Assembly (NCBI GenBank): GCA_014382605.1
Contig: JACNJM010000159.1
Coordinates: forward strand, 1 to 50,747
From: Anaerolineae bacterium
GTDB lineage: Bacteria; Chloroflexota; Anaerolineae; Anaerolineales; UBA11858
Length of the DNA stretch: 50,747 nucleotides
Reading direction: 5' to 3'
Shown here: in pieces, positions 10,973 to 49,960 of the stretch
How positions within the stretch are numbered: position 1 is the first letter of the stretch
How the letters are laid out: each line of letters starts with the position of its first letter
The notes under the pieces: model-generated
Databases searched by the model: none
Told to the model about the DNA's origin: nothing
The model's input: the letters and a program-made list of their open reading frames with translations, nothing else
Position numbers and translations under genes: made by a program

Positions 10973-12319
10973 TCATACCGACACTCGAGGGCGCGTACGC
11001 AAATCGGCGAAGACGCGCAGCACCGCCGCCCCGTTTGTGAACACATAGTAGGCAATCAACAAACTGGCGAAGGCCAACGCGCCAAAGCGTTCAGCCAGCC
11101 AGAAGATGGCGGTCACTTTCAGGATCATGCCGATAGCATTAATCACCGTAGGGAAAACCGGGCGAGACAATGAGAGCAACGCGACACGGTTCCAATAGAA
11201 AATATTGACAAATGTAAAGCCCAACGCCAGCACTACCAGCGCCGGATAAGCGGGCAGGTATTGCGCGCCGTAACTAATTTCTAAAATCCATTCGCCAAAA
11301 ACGATCAAACCCAATGTCACCGGGATCGAGTAAATCGCCGCCAACCGCGATCCCTGGCGCAACACATAACGCACATTTTCCCAATTGCGACGAGCAATTT
11401 CACGCGCCAGTTCCGGGTAGGTGGCTTTGGGCAACGGGCTGATGGGGAGTTGCAGTAAATTGGTGATTGCCAGAGCGGTTTTATATAATCCTGCCTGTGT
11501 CGGGCCTAAAAAAGCCGAAACCCACAGCACTTCGCTATCTTTGGCGATCAGGCTGATAGTGCTGCTCAGATTGGTGCTGAAGGCAAAGGTCAGTAAACTA
11601 CGCCGTTCCGATTTGAGGATGCCCAATGGCGTACGCCACCACACCGAACCCCAATTACGGCGAGCTTCAAACAACGCAGCGGTACTGATAGAAAGCGAGT
11701 AGGCGATCTTACCAACCATATAAGCAATAATTACCGCGGCAAGATCACCTTTGGCAATGAAGATGCCGAGGATTAAAACCAGCGTTATCGCGCTTTGGGC
11801 AACGGTAGCAGCGGCAATGATGCGAAAACGGTCAAAAATTTGCAACAGGCCGCTGGCCGTTTCAAAAATAAAATTGGCGATGACGATCAGGCCGTAGAGT
11901 TGGAACCAGCGCGCCAGATTGGCATCTTGTGCGAAGTACTGCGCCCCGAGGGGGGCTAACCCCCAGATGAGCGCCAGCGCAATCAGCGAACCGCCGACCT
12001 CGAGGAGGGCTGCCATTTTGAAGACCGCCGCCGCCCGAAGAAGGTCGCCATCTTCCTGATACTTCCCCACATAGCGCACAACCAATTCGTTCATGCGGAA
12101 CGATGCAAAGCGGTTGGCAACACTAGTAAATTGCGTGATAGCCCCCAGAATACCAAAACTCGCCGGGCCAAGCAAGCGGGCGGCGAAGATGCTCTGAAAA
12201 ACGCTCATCCCGGCGGAGAGTCCGGTAGCGCTGAGTAAATAGCCGGTATTTTTAATAATCCGGCTGAGAAGTTCGTTTTCGAGCAAACGGGCGAGGGGTG
12301 CGGGAAGTTTTAGCGACAT
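10973..12319 (-). CDS. Polysaccharide flippase (Wzx / MOP superfamily)
   Basis: 448 aa with about 12-14 TM segments, located inside the glycan locus. Confidence 0.75.
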   Translation of the reverse strand: MSLKLPAPLARLLENELLSRIIKNTGYLLSATGLSAGMSVFQSIFAARLLGPASFGILGAITQFTSVANRFASFRMNELVVRYVGKYQEDGDLLRAAAVFKMAALLEVGGSLIALALIWGLAPLGAQYFAQDANLARWFQLYGLIVIANFIFETASGLLQIFDRFRIIAAATVAQSAITLVLILGIFIAKGDLAAVIIAYMVGKIAYSLSISTAALFEARRNWGSVWWRTPLGILKSERRSLLTFAFSTNLSSTISLIAKDSEVLWVSAFLGPTQAGLYKTALAITNLLQLPISPLPKATYPELAREIARRNWENVRYVLRQGSRLAAIYSIPVTLGLIVFGEWILEISYGAQYLPAYPALVVLALGFTFVNIFYWNRVALLSLSRPVFPTVINAIGMILKVTAIFWLAERFGALAFASLLIAYYVFTNGAAVLRVFADLRTRPRVSV

Positions 12320-12321
12320 TG

Positions 12322-12404
12322 TAAAGACGGAAGACCAATGACGGATGACGGGAGGGCAAAAGACTCATGCGTACCATGCTCGGTCTCCTGTCTTCCGTCT
12401 TCTG
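12322..12404. repeat. Family R variant (GACGGAWG units)
   Basis: AGACGGAAGAC (12325-12335) pairs perfectly with GTCTTCCGTCT (12390-12400). The element fills the whole epimerase/flippase intergenic gap. Confidence 0.5.
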
Positions 12405-13385
12405 TCAATCTGTATTAATCTCTCGCGTCCACTCGCGATTTTCGTTGTACCATTCGATCAGGCGAGCAATGCCATCTCGCAATGAGACCTGCGGCTCCCA
12501 ACCGAGCAATTGACCGGCCTTGCTGACATCGGCCCGATTCGCCAGCGCATCGGCAGGATGCAAGGGGTGATAGGTGATCTGCGCTTTGCGGCCAATCATT
12601 TCTTCCATAATGGCAATCAGAGCGTTGATGGTGATATTCTCATGTCCACCCAGGTTGATAATCTCGTAACCCACCGGTTTGAGTGCCTGGATAGTGCCGC
12701 GGGCGATATCATCCACATACGTGAAACCGCGCGATTGTTCGCCATCACCATTGACGCGCAGAGGGATGCCCTCGCTGATCCACTTGGCAAAACGAAACAT
12801 TGACATATCCGGACGGCCTGCCGGACCATAGACGGTGAAGTAGCGCACAATGGAGACATCCAACCCGTTGAGGTAATGGTAGGCGTGTGCCATCGCTTCG
12901 GCGCCTTTTTTACTAGCGGCATAGGCCTGCAAGGGGAGGTCGCTAGAAGCGGTTTCCGGGGTGGGCAGGGGCGCTTCACCACCATAGATACTGGATGTAG
13001 ATGCCAAAATAAATTTGGGCACCCTGGTGCGTTTGCACAACTCTAGCAAGTTGAGCGTGCCGGTCATATTCGTATCAACATACACCCAGGGATCCTCGAC
13101 GCTGGCGCGCACACCGGCGCGGGCGGCCAGATTAATTACGGCATCGAAAGGTTGAAAGTTGAAGGTTAAAGGTTCAACGGCTGACCAATCGCCAATATCC
13201 AATCTTTGAAACTCAAAACCATCGCGGCCTTGCAGTTGTTTCAGCCGATATTCTTTCATGCGCACATCGTAAGCGTCGTTCAGATTATCCACGCCAACGA
13301 CGGTATGCCCGGCATCGAGCAGCATTTCAGCGATGCGGGAGGCGATAAATCCGGCAACCCCCGTAACAAGATAGTTTTTAAACAT
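12405..13385 (-). CDS. NAD-dependent nucleotide-sugar epimerase (UDP-glucuronate 4-epimerase-like SDR)
   Basis: 'VTGVAGFIASRI' (GxxGxxG) and 'YAASKKGAE' (YxxxK). ATG 13385 has an AGGA SD; the longer track start (13448) runs into a repeat. Confidence 0.85.
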   Translation of the reverse strand: MFKNYLVTGVAGFIASRIAEMLLDAGHTVVGVDNLNDAYDVRMKEYRLKQLQGRDGFEFQRLDIGDWSAVEPLTFNFQPFDAVINLAARAGVRASVEDPWVYVDTNMTGTLNLLELCKRTRVPKFILASTSSIYGGEAPLPTPETASSDLPLQAYAASKKGAEAMAHAYHYLNGLDVSIVRYFTVYGPAGRPDMSMFRFAKWISEGIPLRVNGDGEQSRGFTYVDDIARGTIQALKPVGYEIINLGGHENITINALIAIMEEMIGRKAQITYHPLHPADALANRADVSKAGQLLGWEPQVSLRDGIARLIEWYNENREWTREINTD

Positions 13386-13391
13386 ACAAAG

Positions 13392-13413
13392 TCCTAATCC
13401 GGGTAACCCGGAA
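13392..13413 (-). promoter_or_regulatory. Conserved 5'-UTR stem-loop plus SD module (copy 1, epimerase)
   Basis: Minus strand reads TTCCGGGTTACCCGGATTAGGA, 6 nt before the ATG. Confidence 0.45.
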
Positions 13414-13430
13414 TAAAAGCAAGATATTCT

Positions 13431-13506
13431 TGAACCGCAAAGACGCAAAGGTCGCTAAGGTTTTCTATTTTTCTCGGCGTTCTTCGCGTCTTTGCGGTGA
13501 AATTTC
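13431..13506. repeat. Family R full copy
   Basis: TGAACCGCAAAGACGCAAAG...loop...CTTCGCGTCTTTGCGGTGAAATTTC. There is a 13-bp perfect stem (13434-13446 with 13486-13498). Confidence 0.7.
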
Positions 13507-13522
13507 TGACAGGTGTAAGACG

Positions 13523-13560
13523 CCAAAAACGAACAACCGACAGCACTATGCCATCGGTTG
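13523..13560 (-). terminator. Intrinsic terminator after the UDP-sugar dehydrogenase gene
   Basis: Minus strand reads CAACCGA-13 nt-TCGGTTG followed by TTCGTTTTTGG. Confidence 0.55.
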
Positions 13561-13576
13561 CCAGCGGTCGTTAAAA

Positions 13577-14893
13577 CTACAGACGGAAAACTTTGGGGTT
13601 ATCGCGCTGCGCGCTGCCCAGGGCGTTGCGGGTATCGACAATACATTTGGCGGTTTCCAAAATCTCAGCATAAACGTAGTCGCTGTGATTGGTGATAATT
13701 ACGACACAATCAGCTGCTTTCACTGCAGACATCAAATCGGGGACACTTTGAAGTTCAAACTCTTCTTCTTTGATAAAGGGAATGTATGGATCATGAAAAC
13801 TTACCACAGCGCCACTTTGCTCCAGCAAGCCAATCACATCCAATGCAGGAGATTCGCGCAAATCGTCAATATCAGGCTTGTAGGCTACACCCAGCACCAG
13901 GATGTTGCTGCCCTTGAGCGATTTACTCTGATCATTTAGTGCATCTTGCACTTTGCGAGCCACGTAACGCGGCATCCCCAGGTTGATTTCGGAGGCCAGC
14001 TCGATGAAACGGGCAGTGTAATTCAACGAGCGCAATTTCCATGAAAGATAGAGTGGATCAATGGGGATACAGTGGCCGCCCAGACCTGGCCCGGGGGTGA
14101 ATTTCATAAAACCGAAGGGCTTGGTAGCCGCGGCGTCAATCACTTCCCAGACGTCAATGCCAAGACGGTCGCACATCACGGCCATTTCGTTGACCAGGCC
14201 GATATTAATCATGCGGAAGGTGTTTTCGAGCAGCTTCGCCATCTCGGCAACTTCGGAGGAGGTGACGGAGACAACGGTCTCCAGCGCGCCGCGGTACCAG
14301 GTAGCCGAAACTTCAGAACAGGCATCGGTAATACCGCCGATCACCTTGGGGGTGTTAATGGTCGTCCAGTCTTCCCGACCAGGATCCACTCGTTCGGGCG
14401 AAAATGCCAGGAAGAAGTCTTCACCAACGACCAAATCGGTATCATCTCCCAACTGTGGCAACAGAATTTCGCGCGTGGTGCCAGGATAGGTGGTCGATTC
14501 GAGTACCACGACCATACCAGGGTGCATATATTTGGCAAGTTCCGTAGTCACGGAGAGAATAAACGAGAGATCAGGGTCACCGGTTTTGCGTAATGGCGTG
14601 GGTACACATATGCTGACGGCATCGGCCTCGGCAAGAGCGGCGAAATCGGTGGTGGCTTCAAGCCTGCCCGCTTCCACGAGTTGAGCAACCAATTCAGTGG
14701 GTACATCTTGAATATAGCTCTCGCCCTTTTTGAGGGCCTCAATCTTGCGTTCATCGGGGTCAATGCCAATAACATTGAATCCGGCTTCCGCAAACACGGT
14801 GGCAAAAGGCAGGCCAACATAGCCCAAACCTAATACAGCAACTTTTGCGGTTTTGTTCTCAAGTTTTTCAATCAATTGGTTTTTGGTATCCAT
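13577..14893 (-). CDS. UDP-sugar 6-dehydrogenase (UDP-GlcNAc/ManNAc/Glc dehydrogenase family)
   Basis: 'VAVLGLGYVGLPFATVFAEAG' and the catalytic-Cys motif 'GGHCIPIDP'. ATG 14893 has an AGGA SD. Confidence 0.9.
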   Translation of the reverse strand: MDTKNQLIEKLENKTAKVAVLGLGYVGLPFATVFAEAGFNVIGIDPDERKIEALKKGESYIQDVPTELVAQLVEAGRLEATTDFAALAEADAVSICVPTPLRKTGDPDLSFILSVTTELAKYMHPGMVVVLESTTYPGTTREILLPQLGDDTDLVVGEDFFLAFSPERVDPGREDWTTINTPKVIGGITDACSEVSATWYRGALETVVSVTSSEVAEMAKLLENTFRMINIGLVNEMAVMCDRLGIDVWEVIDAAATKPFGFMKFTPGPGLGGHCIPIDPLYLSWKLRSLNYTARFIELASEINLGMPRYVARKVQDALNDQSKSLKGSNILVLGVAYKPDIDDLRESPALDVIGLLEQSGAVVSFHDPYIPFIKEEEFELQSVPDLMSAVKAADCVVIITNHSDYVYAEILETAKCIVDTRNALGSAQRDNPKVFRL

Positions 14894-15073: not shown

Positions 15074-15742
15074 TTATCCGGGGAGCGGCTCGCCATGATG
15101 GAGATAGATGGGGGATAGCATGGCGAGATCGTCCACCGCGGCGGATTGGAAGCGCCCCCAGGCAAGTTCTGCTAATATTGCCGGACGGCGCATAGATTGA
15201 GCGGGAGATGCCAACCGGGCATTCTCATTCTCGAGGGGGAAACGCCCCCGTAAATCGGTGTTCAACTCGCCGCCCACGCGCGTGGGCTGGTCAAATATCG
15301 CCACAAATTCGTCGATGGTCAAATTTTCCAGCCGACCTGTAGATTGATACTTCCCATCCTCGGCCTGATACCAACCCACAGCCATGCGCTTGCGTCCAGC
15401 TTCGATCACGGCGGCAAACTCCGACTCTATCACCGGCTGTGCGGCAGCCAATACGTCAAAAGAAGGCACGCCAATCACCGGGATATGCAGGCTGAGCGCC
15501 AGCCCTTTGGCAAAAGCCAGGCCAATCCGCAAGGCTGTAAAAGACCCTGGGCCCAGCGCCACACCTACGGCTTGCAAATTTTGGCGGTTTGTTTTGGTCT
15601 TCGAGAGTAAATCCAGCACTGCGGGAGCAAGTTCTACCGTGTGATAGCTTCGGCTGACCCAGGCCATTTCGCCAATTACGCTGGCGCCATCATAGAGCGC
15701 AATTCCCACCATGCGCGTAGAAGTATCAATTGCCAATAACAT
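15074..15742 (-). CDS. tsaB: tRNA t6A biosynthesis protein TsaB (YeaZ)
   Basis: 'MLLAIDTSTRMVGIAL'. The ATG overlaps the tsaE stop (TGATG). Confidence 0.85.
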   Translation of the reverse strand: MLLAIDTSTRMVGIALYDGASVIGEMAWVSRSYHTVELAPAVLDLLSKTKTNRQNLQAVGVALGPGSFTALRIGLAFAKGLALSLHIPVIGVPSFDVLAAAQPVIESEFAAVIEAGRKRMAVGWYQAEDGKYQSTGRLENLTIDEFVAIFDQPTRVGGELNTDLRGRFPLENENARLASPAQSMRRPAILAELAWGRFQSAAVDDLAMLSPIYLHHGEPLPG

Positions 15743-16242
15743 CAGGCCACTCCAAAAACTTGATTGCGAAAACGGCGCAGCAATTTCTGGCAATGTTCGC
15801 CGCGCGCCGAAAAGACCAATTGTCGTCGGGTTTCATCCAGCCACTCAAGTTCTACCCAAATACGCTCTTCAGGCAGCACTGCCTCGATACGGTCGGCCCA
15901 CTCAATCACCAGCGGGCCTTCTTCGAACATACTCTCTAAATCCAGGTCAACCGCATCGGACGCGCCGCGCAGGCGGTAGGCATCAAGATGGTAGAAACGC
16001 TGCTGATCCGGGCGGCGGTACATATTTACCAGCACAAAAGTCGGGCTGGAAACCGGGTCTGATGAACCCCACCCGGAGGCAACGCCTTGCATCATGGTGG
16101 TTTTTCCCGCACCCAAGTCGCCGACCAGACCAACAACGTCGCCGGGCTGCAATAATGCGCCTAAACGCATACCCACGCGACGCGTTTGCTCAGAGCTGCG
16201 GCTGATGAGTTCAAAAGAATGTTGAGAAAAGACAGGGGGCAT
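15742..16242 (-). CDS. tsaE: tRNA t6A biosynthesis ATPase TsaE (YjeE)
   Basis: 'LVGDLGAGKTT' P-loop. Start ATG 16242; the track extension reads through a repeat. Confidence 0.85.
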   Translation of the reverse strand: MPPVFSQHSFELISRSSEQTRRVGMRLGALLQPGDVVGLVGDLGAGKTTMMQGVASGWGSSDPVSSPTFVLVNMYRRPDQQRFYHLDAYRLRGASDAVDLDLESMFEEGPLVIEWADRIEAVLPEERIWVELEWLDETRRQLVFSARGEHCQKLLRRFRNQVFGVA

Positions 16243-16248
16243 AGTTTG

Positions 16249-16277
16249 ATTATAAACCTTCAACCTGTAACCTTCAA
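16249..16277 (-). promoter_or_regulatory. Sigma70-type promoter for tsaE, leaderless geometry, embedded in a family-B repeat
   Basis: Minus strand reads TTGAAG-17 nt-TATAAT-caaact-ATG(16242). Confidence 0.45.
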
Positions 16278-16320
16278 CATATGGCAATTTCAGATTGAAA
16301 GTCACAGGTTTATGGTTTGA
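16251..16320. repeat. Family B hairpin repeat (AACCTTCAAC units)
   Basis: ATAAACCTTCAACCTGTAACCTTCAAC-16 nt-TTGAAAGTCACAGGTTTATGGTTTGA. About 20 of 24 positions pair. Confidence 0.6.
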
Positions 16321-18472
16321 TTTCCAACCGCGCCAGCGAAGCAACCACACGCTTTAGGCCAACATCTTCAAAGAAAATATCGACGATTTCTTCGTGGTCT
16401 TCAATTTTGCTGTTGAGCACCATGCCATCGCCCCAAGCGGCATGGTTCACGTTCATGCCAGGATGATATTGTTGCTCAACGCTTTCGATTTCTTCAGATG
16501 CGTCCCATCGCTCCGGGCGGAATATTGCGCCATAGTTTGAGTTTTGCCGCGCAGGCGCGCCGCTGACTAACTCTAGGGGAATATCTTCCAGGTAGCGCGA
16601 AGGGTCGGCTGATTCCATATAACCATAATTAAAACGGTTGAGGGCATAGAGCAAATATAACTGGTCTTCGGCACGCGTGATGCCAACATACAGCAAGCGA
16701 CGTTCTTCATGCATCGCTTCAGGGTCTTCGAAGGAACGAATATGCGGAAGTGTGCCATCATTCAGGCCAATGATGAAGACCACCGGAAATTCCAGCCCTT
16801 TGGCGGCGTGCAAAGTCAATAAAGTAGGCACGTTGCCAGTATCATCAAGGGTATCCTGATCGGATACCAGGGCAATATTTTCAAGAAATGCTTCCAGGCT
16901 GCGATTCTCGTACTCCGAGGCCAGGCGGCGCAATTCCATCACGTTTTCCCAACGTTCTTTGCCTTCTTCGGTGCCATCTTCGAGATAGGTGCGATAGTCA
17001 ATATCGCCGAGGATGAGGTCCATCAAGCCCATCGGAGTTAAATCATCTTTTTGCGTGTGCCAACTCGAAAGGAGTCTGCCAAACCCGGCCAGGGAAGTTG
17101 CCACCCGGTTGGGGAGCGCCTCACCATGCTCGGAGTCAGGATACAGCCCCATCTGCAAGACAATTTCCCCCGGCGAGAGATTCTGCTGCCCAGCGTAGGT
17201 GCGTAATGTGAGGATGCTTTTATCCCCAATGCCGCGGCGCGGCGTATTGATGACGCGCATCAGGCTGATCTCATCACGCGGGTTATACACCAGCCGCAGG
17301 TAGGCGATCACATCCTTAACTTCGCGGCGTCCGTAGAAACGCTGCGCGCCAACCAGTTTATAGGGGAACCCCGCGGCAAGAAAGGCTTCTTCCAGGATGC
17401 GCGATTGGGCGTTGGTACGATACATGACGGCAAAATCGCCAGGCTCGTTTTTCTGGGCGGCGACATCTTTGGCAATTTGCCCAACAAGAAACGCAGCCAT
17501 CTCGCGATCGTCATAGAGTTCGCGCAGGGTGATCTTGCGCCCGTCGCCGCGCTCGGTAAATAATTTCTTGGGTGTACGTTTGGGATTCTGGTCAATCACC
17601 GCCATCGCCGTATCAAGGATCGTCTGCGTGGAGCGGTAATTTTGCTCCAGCAAAATGACCTGCGAGTCGGGGTAATCTTCTTCAAAGCGCAACACGTTGC
17701 GATAATCAGCGCCACGCCAGCGATATATGGATTGGTCGGCATCGCCAACGACAAAAATATTTTGATGAAAAGATGCCAGATGTTTGAGCAGGGTATATTG
17801 CACCATATTCGTATCTTGAAACTCATCCACCAAAATATGCTCATAACGACGGGCGTAACGCTCGCGCACCGCGGGCATCTGGCCGAGCAGGTAGGCCGTC
17901 CATAGAAGCATATCGTCAAAATCGAGGGCGTTGCTGGCAAGTAGCATCTTTTGGTAACGCTCATAAACGCGTTTAACAACTTCATCACGATACGTCTGCA
18001 CGGGAAAATCATCGGGGAACAGCAATTCATTTTTGGCGCGCGAAATCGAGCCGTGAATGCCGTGCGGGCGGTAAAGTTTGTCGTTCAGGTTCAGGTCTTT
18101 GACGACTTGTTTGACCACCCGAATCTGATCGTCGGCATCGAAAATGACATAATTCGGGTCAAAGGGCAGGTACTGTGCCTCACGCCGCAAAATTCGCCCA
18201 CAAATCGAGTGGAAGGTTCCCAGAGTTAGCCCGCGATTGCGCTCGCCCAGCAAATTGCCGATGCGTTCGTCCATTTCGCGGGCGGCTTTATTCGTAAAAG
18301 TCACCGCCAAAACATGGTAGGGACGCACACCCAGATACCCGATCAGATAAGCAATGCGCTGCGTGAGCACACGCGTTTTCCCCGAACCAGGGCCAGCCAG
18401 CACTAAAATTGCACCGGTTCCCGCTGTCACGGCCTGTTGTTGTTGTGGGTTTAGCTCACGAAGCATATCCAT
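16310..18472 (-). CDS. pcrA: ATP-dependent DNA helicase PcrA/UvrD
   Basis: 'AGPGSGKTRVLTQR', 'DEFQDTN' and 'TLHAAKGLEFPVVF'. ATG 18472 sits 7 nt after a TACAAT -10 box. Confidence 0.93.
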   Translation of the reverse strand: MDMLRELNPQQQQAVTAGTGAILVLAGPGSGKTRVLTQRIAYLIGYLGVRPYHVLAVTFTNKAAREMDERIGNLLGERNRGLTLGTFHSICGRILRREAQYLPFDPNYVIFDADDQIRVVKQVVKDLNLNDKLYRPHGIHGSISRAKNELLFPDDFPVQTYRDEVVKRVYERYQKMLLASNALDFDDMLLWTAYLLGQMPAVRERYARRYEHILVDEFQDTNMVQYTLLKHLASFHQNIFVVGDADQSIYRWRGADYRNVLRFEEDYPDSQVILLEQNYRSTQTILDTAMAVIDQNPKRTPKKLFTERGDGRKITLRELYDDREMAAFLVGQIAKDVAAQKNEPGDFAVMYRTNAQSRILEEAFLAAGFPYKLVGAQRFYGRREVKDVIAYLRLVYNPRDEISLMRVINTPRRGIGDKSILTLRTYAGQQNLSPGEIVLQMGLYPDSEHGEALPNRVATSLAGFGRLLSSWHTQKDDLTPMGLMDLILGDIDYRTYLEDGTEEGKERWENVMELRRLASEYENRSLEAFLENIALVSDQDTLDDTGNVPTLLTLHAAKGLEFPVVFIIGLNDGTLPHIRSFEDPEAMHEERRLLYVGITRAEDQLYLLYALNRFNYGYMESADPSRYLEDIPLELVSGAPARQNSNYGAIFRPERWDASEEIESVEQQYHPGMNVNHAAWGDGMVLNSKIEDHEEIVDIFFEDVGLKRVVASLARLEIKP

Positions 18473-18479
18473 GTGGGGG

Positions 18480-18508
18480 ATTGTATCGCCGTGTCTGATC
18501 GTTGTCAA
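18480..18508 (-). promoter_or_regulatory. Sigma70-type promoter for pcrA, leaderless geometry
   Basis: Minus strand reads TTGACA-17 nt-TACAAT-cccccac-ATG(18472). Confidence 0.55.
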
Positions 18509-18561
18509 AGCCACGTCCCTGCGCTACAATCTAATTTGAAATAAAAAACGATTGCTTAGGC

Positions 18562-18585
18562 TTACGCCTTCGCAATCAAGATTTC
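18562..18585. repeat. Family R half copy abutting the 18586 palindrome
   Basis: TTACGCCTTCGCAATCAAGATTTC; compare CGCCTTCGCGATGAAATTC at 44946-44964. Confidence 0.35.
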
Positions 18586-18638
18586 GCAAAAAAGGGTGTG
18601 CATGGGGTGCGTCGCACCCCATGCACACCCTTTTTTGC
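18586..18638. terminator. Perfect 26-bp-arm palindrome with A6/T6 flanks (bidirectional-terminator-like) between divergent pcrA and holB
   Basis: GCAAAAAAGGGTGTGCATGGGGTGCG-T-CGCACCCCATGCACACCCTTTTTTGC. Confidence 0.4.
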
Positions 18639-18667
18639 GATTTTCCCTTTCGAGAAAACTATCGAAA

Positions 18668-20435: not shown

Positions 20436-20489
20436 AAAAACTCAAAGGTGTGCCGCGATAAAATGCTCGCGGCACACCTTTGAGTTTTT
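20436..20489 (+). terminator. Intrinsic terminator after the lipoprotein gene
   Basis: AAAAACTCAAAGGTGTGCCGCGA-8 nt-TCGCGGCACACCTTTGAGTTTTT. Confidence 0.75.
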
Positions 20490-29283: not shown

Positions 29284-29340
29284 CGAAAAAAATAAGGGTG
29301 GCTGAGGGGCAAAGCCCCTTAGCCACCCTTATTTTTTTCG
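29284..29340 (+). terminator. Intrinsic terminator after the second histidine kinase
   Basis: CGAAAAAAATAAGGGTGGCTGAGGGGC-AAA-GCCCCTTAGCCACCCTTATTTTTTTCG. Confidence 0.8.
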
Positions 29341-34498: not shown

Positions 34499-34505
34499 AG
34501 GCTAC

Positions 34506-34553
34506 AAGTTGAAGGTTACTTGTGCAACACACCAACCTTCAGTTTTCAACCTT
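34506..34553. repeat. Family B hairpin repeat between convergent genes
   Basis: AAGTTGAAGGTTAC...CAACCTTCAGTTTTCAACCTT. Confidence 0.5.
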
Positions 34554-37305: not shown

Positions 37306-37416
37306 GGTACCCTCCTTTTTGGGTAGGGGCCGGTTAAACAACGATATTTCATTTGCTGGTCTCGTCCCGGCTGATGAAAATCAGTACAGGCGATAAATGT
37401 GTTGCAAATTAGTAGG

Positions 37417-37432
37417 CTGAAAGTTGAAAGTA
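37417..37432. repeat. Family B half copy fused to a family R half copy
   Basis: CTGAAAGTTGAAAGTA. Confidence 0.35.
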
Positions 37433-49936: not shown

Positions 49937-49960
49937 GCAAGTTGAAAGTTATTGGTTGGA
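49937..49960. repeat. Family B half copy
   Basis: GCAAGTTGAAAGTTATTGGTTGGA. Confidence 0.35.

Follow-up and report, generated by a model that had tools for sequence, protein, structure and literature searches.

Whether a dispersed repeat can provide a gene with its promoter is the question raised by the short gap between pcrA and tsaE in the window, the whole 50,747-nucleotide stretch of DNA from an Anaerolineae bacterium analyzed here. A hairpin built of heptamer repeats lies in this gap, and the initial annotation held that it supplies a complete promoter for a leaderless tsaE. We consider it probable, with real room for doubt, that the tsaE promoter is instead a hybrid, in which a repeat-derived −35 and spacer sit on a resident, ancestral leaderless −10. 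The source genome is metagenome-assembled (3.66 Mb, 339 contigs, 52% G+C), and the relatives with which it was compared are uncultured Anaerolineales of the phylum Chloroflexota. Below, G000 is the source genome, other G-numbers are genomes of relatives, L-numbers are tsaE orthologue loci and C-numbers are contigs.

The promoter-like site before tsaE

The features of the locus, in the order in which they are read on the minus strand, are:

16310-18514, minus strand: pcrA, a UvrD-family helicase (NCBIfam TIGR01073 pcrA, E 1.6e-241; open reading frame (ORF) list), with its stop codon TAA at 16312-16310
16294-16310, minus strand: 5′ arm of the hairpin, a degenerate arm of AAC-type units AACCTGTGACTTTCAAT that starts in the pcrA stop codon (folds)
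16279-16293, minus strand: hairpin loop CTGAAATTGCCATAT (folds)
16255-16278, minus strand: GTT-type array GTTGAAG GTTACAG GTTGAAG GTT, which spans the −35 box and the whole promoter spacer (sequence)
16272-16277, minus strand: −35 hexamer TTGAAG, 4/6 to TTGACA and 17 bp from the −10 (promoter scan)
16249-16254, minus strand: −10 hexamer TATAAT, outside the repeat, without a TGn extension, ending 6 nt before the ATG
15742-16242, minus strand: tsaE, 166 aa (TIGR00150 T6A_YjeE, 91.3 bits against a cut-off of 60.1; alignment of the orthologues begins at residue 1)
15074-15742, minus strand: tsaB (TIGR03725 T6A_YeaZ), whose ATG overlaps the tsaE stop (TGATG)

The spacer between pcrA and tsaE is 67 nt long and reads TAA-ACCTGTGACTTTCAAT-CTGAAATTGCCATAT-GTTGAAGGTTACAGGTTGAAGGTT-TATAAT-CAAACT-ATG on the minus strand. 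The tsaE start codon is the ATG at 16242-16240; the initial annotation had placed it at 16243, one base off, and translation of the frame from there runs into stops. Its promoter reading was found exactly, both in the sequence and by a promoter scan: TTGAAG (16277-16272) is followed by 17 nt, TATAAT (16254-16249), CAAACT and the ATG. This is the sole match of the scan in 1.3 kb, with 10 of 12 positions matching and no TG extension. No Shine-Dalgarno (SD) sequence lies 4–10 nt upstream of the ATG, where the sequence is GGTTTATAATCAAACT. The GAAGG closest to the ATG ends 14 nt away from it and is too distant for such a role.

Leaderless genes led by a TA-type box carry a TAnnnT whose last base lies 5–8 nt before the start codon. 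In tsaE this distance is 6 nt, an SD sequence is missing, and the arrangement is conserved in orthologues (see below). The usual sigma70 start point is 7 nt downstream of the −10, so the predicted start point here is the A of the tsaE ATG. With the conserved −10 and no SD, it is very probable that tsaE possesses a sigma70-type promoter of its own, positioned to yield a leaderless mRNA, as had been proposed. Promoter activity, the exact transcription start, the leaderless start and any contribution of TTGAAG to activity are what we infer from the sequence. At 15740-15744, TGATG contains both the tsaE stop and the tsaB start, and tsaB is probably coupled translationally to tsaE and carried on the same leaderless transcript.

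The tsaE site has the modal leaderless geometry of its genome. The first base of TATAAT peaks at −13 and −12 from ATG codons (32 and 22 cases, compared to about 4 at other offsets), control hexamers are flat around ATG codons in the same genome, and the genes with TATAAT at these two positions are ordinary long ORFs. Among 94 leaderless-type promoters of the genome, a −35 of at least 4/6 at 17 bp is present in 12, compared to 6 of 94 at control spacings, and a TGn extension is present in 27. No general −35 consensus is visible in the aligned matrix of these leaderless promoters.

What predates the repeat

We read the regions upstream of tsaE orthologues in 30 relatives drawn from 17 families of the order. 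In 24 of the 30, TATAAT, or in one genome TAGAAT, stands 6–11 nt before the tsaE ATG, a count that overstates independence, as the orthologues come from related genomes. The box occurs with pcrA or another gene upstream, and irrespective of the content of the spacer. Three loci (L012, L014 and L019) have repeat-free pcrA–tsaE spacers of only 23–29 nt; here 6 nt separate the box from the ATG, and the final pcrA codons cover the −35 position. Thus, from its presence in repeat-free orthologues, the −10, together with the leaderless geometry, predates the repeat.

These orthologues already contradict the proposal that a complete promoter, with both −35 and −10, arrived with the repeat copy, and that the family seeds promoters as it spreads. 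The −35 and the spacer are indeed made of repeat units, and, as had been pointed out, the unit holds TTGAAG or TTGAAA by construction. TATAAT, in contrast, is not a unit of the family, lies outside the array and is kept at a like distance from the ATG in repeat-free orthologues across the order. Additionally, no other copy in the genome has a −10 box at promoter spacing, and of two further array-plus-TAnAAT matches in 41 genomes neither precedes a gene start. A complete promoter carried in by the repeat is, in our judgment, hardly credible.

The −35 is also maintained, in varying sequence. With the −10 boxes in register, a hexamer matching TTGACA at 4/6 or better stands at exactly 17 bp in 15 of 24 orthologues (in L012 at 16 bp), namely TTCACG in five, TTTACC or TTTACG in four, TTGTCG or TTGTCC in three, TTGAAG in two and CTGACG in one. 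A random hexamer reaches this score about 4% of the time. Compared to this rate, and to the 12 of 94 found genome-wide, the proportion indicates that a −35 is maintained at the tsaE promoter whatever its origin. In several genera (L006, L011, L013 and L025), the −35 at 17 bp consists of a motif GCGCTTTAC(G/C). A similar GCGTTTTACG lies only 2 nt from TATAAT in the shortest spacers (L012 and L014), which suggests a deletion of roughly 15 nt.

The sequence upstream of the −10 has turned over within the lineage. G000 and its closest relative, G011 (TsaE 96% identity), have nothing in common between the pcrA stop and TTTATAAT; in G011 a hairpin of GACGTC units occupies the spacer, a further 17 nt come after it, and CTGACG stands at 17 bp from the −10. 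Elsewhere in the genus (L004, L006–L010), CGTGGAG-type arrays are found in spacers of 86–137 nt. G010 (TsaE 73% identity) retains GTTGAAGcTTACAGaTTGAAGGTTTATAAT, with 28 of 30 positions identical to G000 from the −35 to the −10, while the rest of its spacer is unalignable and the fold is lost (z +0.9). The −35 is made of repeat units in both G000 and G010.

We therefore favor a hybrid promoter, and the element-borne −35 does lie within 16–18 bp of a −10 that exists without the element. Under this account, tsaE and the coupled tsaB would be expressed from an old sigma70-type promoter whose TATAAT ends 6 nt short of the ATG, the first transcribed base would be the A of that ATG, giving a leaderless mRNA, and this geometry would be ancestral in Anaerolineales. 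In an ancestor of the lineage, a fast-evolving heptamer repeat would have come between the pcrA stop and the −10. Its promoter-proximal GTT arm would now fill the −35 position and the whole 17-bp spacer, with a GTTGAAG unit setting TTGAAG at exactly 17 bp in place of an ancestral −35 of the TTTACG/TTCACG type; relatives have TTTACG, TTCACG or TTGTCG there. The hairpin would be unneeded, a by-product of the repeat that at most adds a 3′ stem-loop to pcrA read-through RNA. Directly observed are the sequence geometry, the conservation of the −10 and the −35, the turnover of the repeat at the site and the genome-wide leaderless signature.

Several points weigh against this account. When an array of 7-bp period adjoins the −10, TTGAAR comes to lie at 16–18 bp by chance about 3/7 of the time, so that the fit of the −35 may be luck, subsequently tolerated by selection. 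The −35 may matter little in this organism, as there is little genome-wide −35 signal and TGn occurs in 27 of 94 promoters. The array has been lost or replaced in the closest relative, which argues against strong constraint on its sequence. Furthermore, the orthologues include related genomes and their independence is overstated, the arm order of the tsaE hairpin is the reverse of that of the family and its origin is left unexplained, and promoter activity and the leaderless start rest on sequence and conservation.

The leaderless promoter might accordingly work by its −10 alone, with the repeat arm a neutral passenger and TTGAAG at 17 bp a coincidence of the period. The near absence of −35 enrichment among the leaderless promoters of the genome (12/94 versus 6/94), the lack of a −35 signal in the aligned matrix, the 3/7 chance for an abutting array and the different sequence in the closest relative would all be expected if this were so. 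Yet the tsaE promoter lacks TGn, which often compensates for a missing −35, 15 of 24 orthologues keep a hexamer of at least 4/6 at exactly 17 bp, and G010 is 28/30 identical from the −35 to the −10 in a spacer that has otherwise decayed. We regard a promoter acting by its −10 alone as unlikely, though one to be taken seriously.

Expression of tsaE by read-through from pcrA, without any internal promoter, would leave TATAAT as an AU-rich translation enhancer or a fortuitous match. The pcrA–tsaE synteny is conserved across the order, and in one relative (L026, G032:C47) the two genes overlap as TGATG without a TATAAT box, which, to judge from the gene arrangement, offers another, coupled way of expressing tsaE inside this order; coupled expression is thus possible in principle. 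However, the exact TATAAT, beyond mere AU-richness, is conserved at 6–11 nt with a −35 at 17 bp, no SD is available for internal initiation, and the arrangement fits the genome-wide leaderless class. Read-through as the only route to tsaE is therefore very improbable.

The hairpin and its heptamer family

The 5′ arm AACCUGUGACUUUCAAU (16310-16294) pairs with the 3′ arm GUUGAAGGUUACAGGUU, which corresponds to array positions 16278-16262. The stem consists of 17 contiguous pairs (14 Watson-Crick and three G-U) and is extended by a 5-bp outer helix, so that the figure of 20 of 24 paired positions in the initial annotation was approximately right; the pcrA stop codon lies within an arm, as also stated there, since the 5′ arm begins in it. 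The RNA fold has a free energy of −30.2 kcal/mol (z −4.35), and none of 200 shuffles folds as well; the DNA fold has a z of −3.55. Pairing of the GTT arm with the first tsaE codons was considered and rejected, being too weak and absent from the predicted fold.

Such a stable stem on the sense strand raises the possibility that the RNA hairpin is the functional part, serving as a pcrA 3′ terminator, a stabilizer or an RNase III site that separates pcrA and tsaE expression. On the sense strand, the three non-Watson-Crick pairs are all G-U, which makes the sense RNA fold better than the antisense RNA, and in several relatives another hairpin occupies the corresponding position. The genome has an RNase III gene, and cleavage of pcrA read-through RNA by this enzyme at the hairpin is conceivable. 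In contrast, a terminator scan at the hairpin gave no match, the stem being followed by GAAGGUUUAUAAUC without a U-tract, and the three G-U pairs on one strand are not significant (p about 0.25). Of the orthologous spacers that were scored, only seven of 21 have a fold better than z −2, which leaves two-thirds without significant structure, and some spacers are of 23–29 nt or reduced to the TGATG overlap. A conserved requirement for the hairpin structure was rejected on this basis, and a function of the RNA hairpin itself is decidedly improbable. Rfam 15 covariance models gave no match in 15900-16700 on either strand at E up to 1.

Elsewhere in the window, perfect or near-perfect palindromes with A/T-tract flanks at 18584-18640, 20436-20489 and 29284-29340 have the look of canonical bidirectional intrinsic terminators. 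The organism thus has such terminator signals, and the tsaE hairpin is without them.

The arms belong to a real, lineage-restricted family that is patchy among relatives. They are tandem heptamers of the form GTT-NNN-R (GTTGAAG, GTTGAAA, GTTACAG, GTTGCAG), with an occasional octamer, e.g. GTTGGCAG. The sequence GTTGAAGGTT occurs 87 times in the 3.66-Mb genome, compared to 6.4 expected. Arrays of at least three units number 40, compared to none in a shuffled genome, and those of at least two units number 145, compared to 32. Most of the arrays sit in gene gaps. The pattern GTTGAARGTTNNARGTT was counted 42 times in G000, 133 in G011, 60 in G012, 25 in G010 and 212 in G015, with the other searched genomes at background. 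No two copies have a common loop or unit order, and the family thus has no master sequence. The intergenic census left out the arrays at C6:33219-36787 of G000, where four near-identical arrays GTTGGCAGGTTGAAGGTTGAAGG recur about every 1.5 kb, probably in a large repetitive coding gene.

The three relatives of the hairpin listed previously in the window (as 34506-34553, 37417-37432 and 49937-49960) are all real, and a further copy was found at 13147-13178:

13147-13178, plus strand: array inside a NAD-dependent sugar epimerase/dehydratase ORF (12405-13385, minus strand), with the in-frame translation EPLTFNFQP
34499-34551, no strand assigned: family copy occupying exactly the interval between two convergent stop codons (sequence comparison)
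about 37412-37432, plus strand: array CTGAAAGTTGAAAGT of two to three units, joined to an octamer-family half copy (sequence)
49937-49960, plus strand: short GTT-type array GTTAGCAAGTTGAAAGTTATTGG (sequence)

At the site orthologous to 34499-34551, G011 has a longer copy with different units. The array at 13147-13178 is translated in frame as …AVEPLTFNFQPFDAV…; in three relatives, this is a variable loop of near-equal length (…ILETLTRPNIPTFDAV…).

The tsaE hairpin differs from the other two-armed copies of the genome in its arm order. It reads AAC-arm, loop, GTT-arm, whereas all 16 of the others detected read GTT-arm, loop, AAC-arm; as a result, it is not a canonical family copy. Its GTT arm GTTGAAGGTTACAGGTTGAAGG nevertheless matches the GTT (first-read) arms of copies at C127:4228 and C175:16931 over 21 nt, and at C115:13 over 15 nt. 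Given the reverse order and the decayed partner arm, the tsaE copy looks like a remnant or a composite.

The initial annotation also suggested that spread of the element could seed promoters. We measured the spacing from GTTGAAR to TATAAT, TAnAAT and TAnnnT; no peak of −10-like boxes is seen at 16–18 bp after GTTGAAR in the genome, and tsaE is the sole GTTGAAR-17-TATAAT case. The pattern GTTGAARGTTNNNNGTTN{6,8}TANAAT was then searched in 41 genomes, including the two with 133 and 212 array matches. Beside a gene start it matched only at G000 tsaE, with a decayed version at the same site in G010. The two further matches (G015 and G018) do not lie before a start codon, and were rejected as parallels for this reason. 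With no −10 enrichment after the units and no second case at a gene start, promoter seeding by the heptamer family is not general.

Turnover of the repeat was followed at 20 array sites compared between G000 and G011, with flanks 75–96% identical. At most of these, the element is present in both genomes with differing units, lengths or arms, and at one (C268) an arm is replaced in G011 by a hairpin of the octamer family. Two sites are filled in G000 and empty in G011. At C338:6147-6169, a 25-nt array lies directly before an ATG and gives GAAGG-TTGAATC-ATG, with SD-like spacing (7 nt); the N-terminus is MIRVENL, compared to MSIIRVKNL in G011. At C169:12879-12907, a 30-nt second arm lies within a long ORF (12181-14145, plus strand) and, read by eye in this unannotated frame, appears to add about 10 in-frame residues before a conserved YWQLEYEPK motif. 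No target-site duplication is visible at either C338 or C169.

Known systems and array-bracketed genes

A peak of TATAAT before the start codon is the in-silico signature of leaderless genes, and Chloroflexi have been reported with the form TAtaaT (PMC3160421); leaderless genes with a −10 motif are also described in Deinococcus-Thermus (PMC12340547). Like these TA-led genes, tsaE has TAnnnT/TATAAT about 12 bp before the start and no SD. There is no difference in kind; tsaE adds a repeat-derived upstream half.

In the classic hybrid promoter of insertion sequences, the element gives an outward-facing −35 and resident DNA gives a −10 at 17 bp. In Neisseria, entire promoters can arise at the ends of Correia repeat enclosed elements (PMC2649163). 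The tsaE case resembles both in that a repeated element beside a gene contributes promoter hexamers. In contrast to Correia elements, the tsaE element gives only a −35 and spacer, and no second case exists in the 41 genomes. It also differs from insertion sequences and Correia elements in having no transposase, no fixed terminal inverted repeats, no target-site duplication and no uniform length. Assignment to a Correia-type element or a miniature inverted-repeat transposable element fails on the variable lengths and arms and on the absence of duplication at C338 and C169.

Repetitive extragenic palindromes (REP), bacterial interspersed mosaic elements (BIME) and REP doublets forming hairpins (REPIN), with their REP-associated tyrosine transposases (RAYT), are likewise short extragenic palindromes dispersed between genes. 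This class was rejected: none of the three Y1 (PF01797) transposase genes in the genome is flanked by heptamer or octamer units, and the copies share units without a single conserved palindrome or other conserved sequence.

The behavior fits that of heptameric intergenic repeats, i.e. the tandem heptanucleotides of Calothrix (short tandemly repeated repetitive sequences, STRR), GGGGAYT of Nostoc and GGGAATC of Xanthomonas (PMC4692102). As in this STRR or long simple sequence repeat class, tandem 7-nt units are over-represented in G000, and the site is kept while its content turns over. The likeness extends to intergenic over-representation, to occasional inverted pairs that form stem-loops, and to sites kept in close relatives with variable length and sequence. 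The G000 units are degenerate (GTT-NNN-R), whereas STRR-class repeats are perfect, and the G000 arrays are short (3–5 units). A fixed arm order in two-armed copies, in-frame genic arrays and fusion to other unit families also set G000 apart. A literature search for heptanucleotide repeats in Chloroflexi found no paper.

Thus, the tsaE case is a known process (hybrid promoter, leaderless TA-led gene and heptameric repeats) in a fresh combination, and not a new system. By comparison alone, the locus displays the piecemeal rebuilding of a promoter: the −10 and leaderless start are fixed order-wide, and the upstream half is swapped between unrelated repeat families with a −35-like hexamer kept at exactly 17 bp. 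To our knowledge, almost no experimental promoter data exist for Chloroflexota, and the tsaE promoter is a natural experiment on the weight of the −35 in leaderless promoters of this phylum. It also cautions against taking repeat-borne TTGAA motifs as promoter seeds.

Arrays of short inverted units also bracket genes. PF05635, a four-helix-bundle family (“23S rRNA intervening sequence protein”), has nine matches in G000, amounting to about seven genes. Five of the seven inspected loci are bracketed by inverted 7–8-nt unit arrays, with a different unit family at each; the C124 copy has GACGTC-type arms. Additionally, three of four full-length GxxExxY (PF13366) genes are flanked on both sides by octamer arrays of the CGCAAAGA type. 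The bracketed genes of G000 are:

C144:14936-15250: PF05635
C229:13202-13510: PF05635
C24:3189-3497: PF05635
C124:1759-2070: PF05635
C175:8411-8701: PF05635
C186:10503-10853: GxxExxY (PF13366)
C95:4802-5152: GxxExxY (PF13366)
C311:7567-7920: GxxExxY (PF13366)

ORF-bearing intervening sequences of 23S rRNA are known from Coxiella (S23p, PF05635; PMC4990558). The PF05635 genes of this lineage lie in inverted 7–8-nt arrays, and no rRNA link exists here.

Some PF05635 genes of relatives (G011:C150:16059-16376; G015:C129:8521-8835) lie between GTTGAAG-type arms, with the GTT-arm before the gene and the AAC-arm after it, the same order as in the short-loop hairpins. The short hairpins may be cargo-less versions of PF05635 and GxxExxY cassettes, an idea that is suggestive only. 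The tsaE copy itself is no such cassette, having no cargo and the reverse arm order. More broadly, and as a doubtful possibility, the hairpins of the lineage would be cargo-less remnants of mobile cassettes, in which inverted 7–8-nt arrays carry small PF05635 or GxxExxY genes. These cassettes would insert preferentially at gene boundaries, and their arms would have been co-opted time and again for gene expression, as the −35 of tsaE, as an SD-like GAAGG immediately before the ATG of another gene, and as in-frame protein loops. The literature searched contains no description of such a cassette class. If the idea is true, the tsaE promoter would be one product of an undescribed class of selfish elements shaping gene boundaries in Chloroflexota and other phyla.

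A separate observation was made at C106:5284-5306, among the array sites. G000 has a 23-nt array there, and G011 has a 658-nt insert between the orthologous flanks, which contains a putative protein of the GxxExxY type (by look) followed by a hairpin of CGCGAATA-type units.

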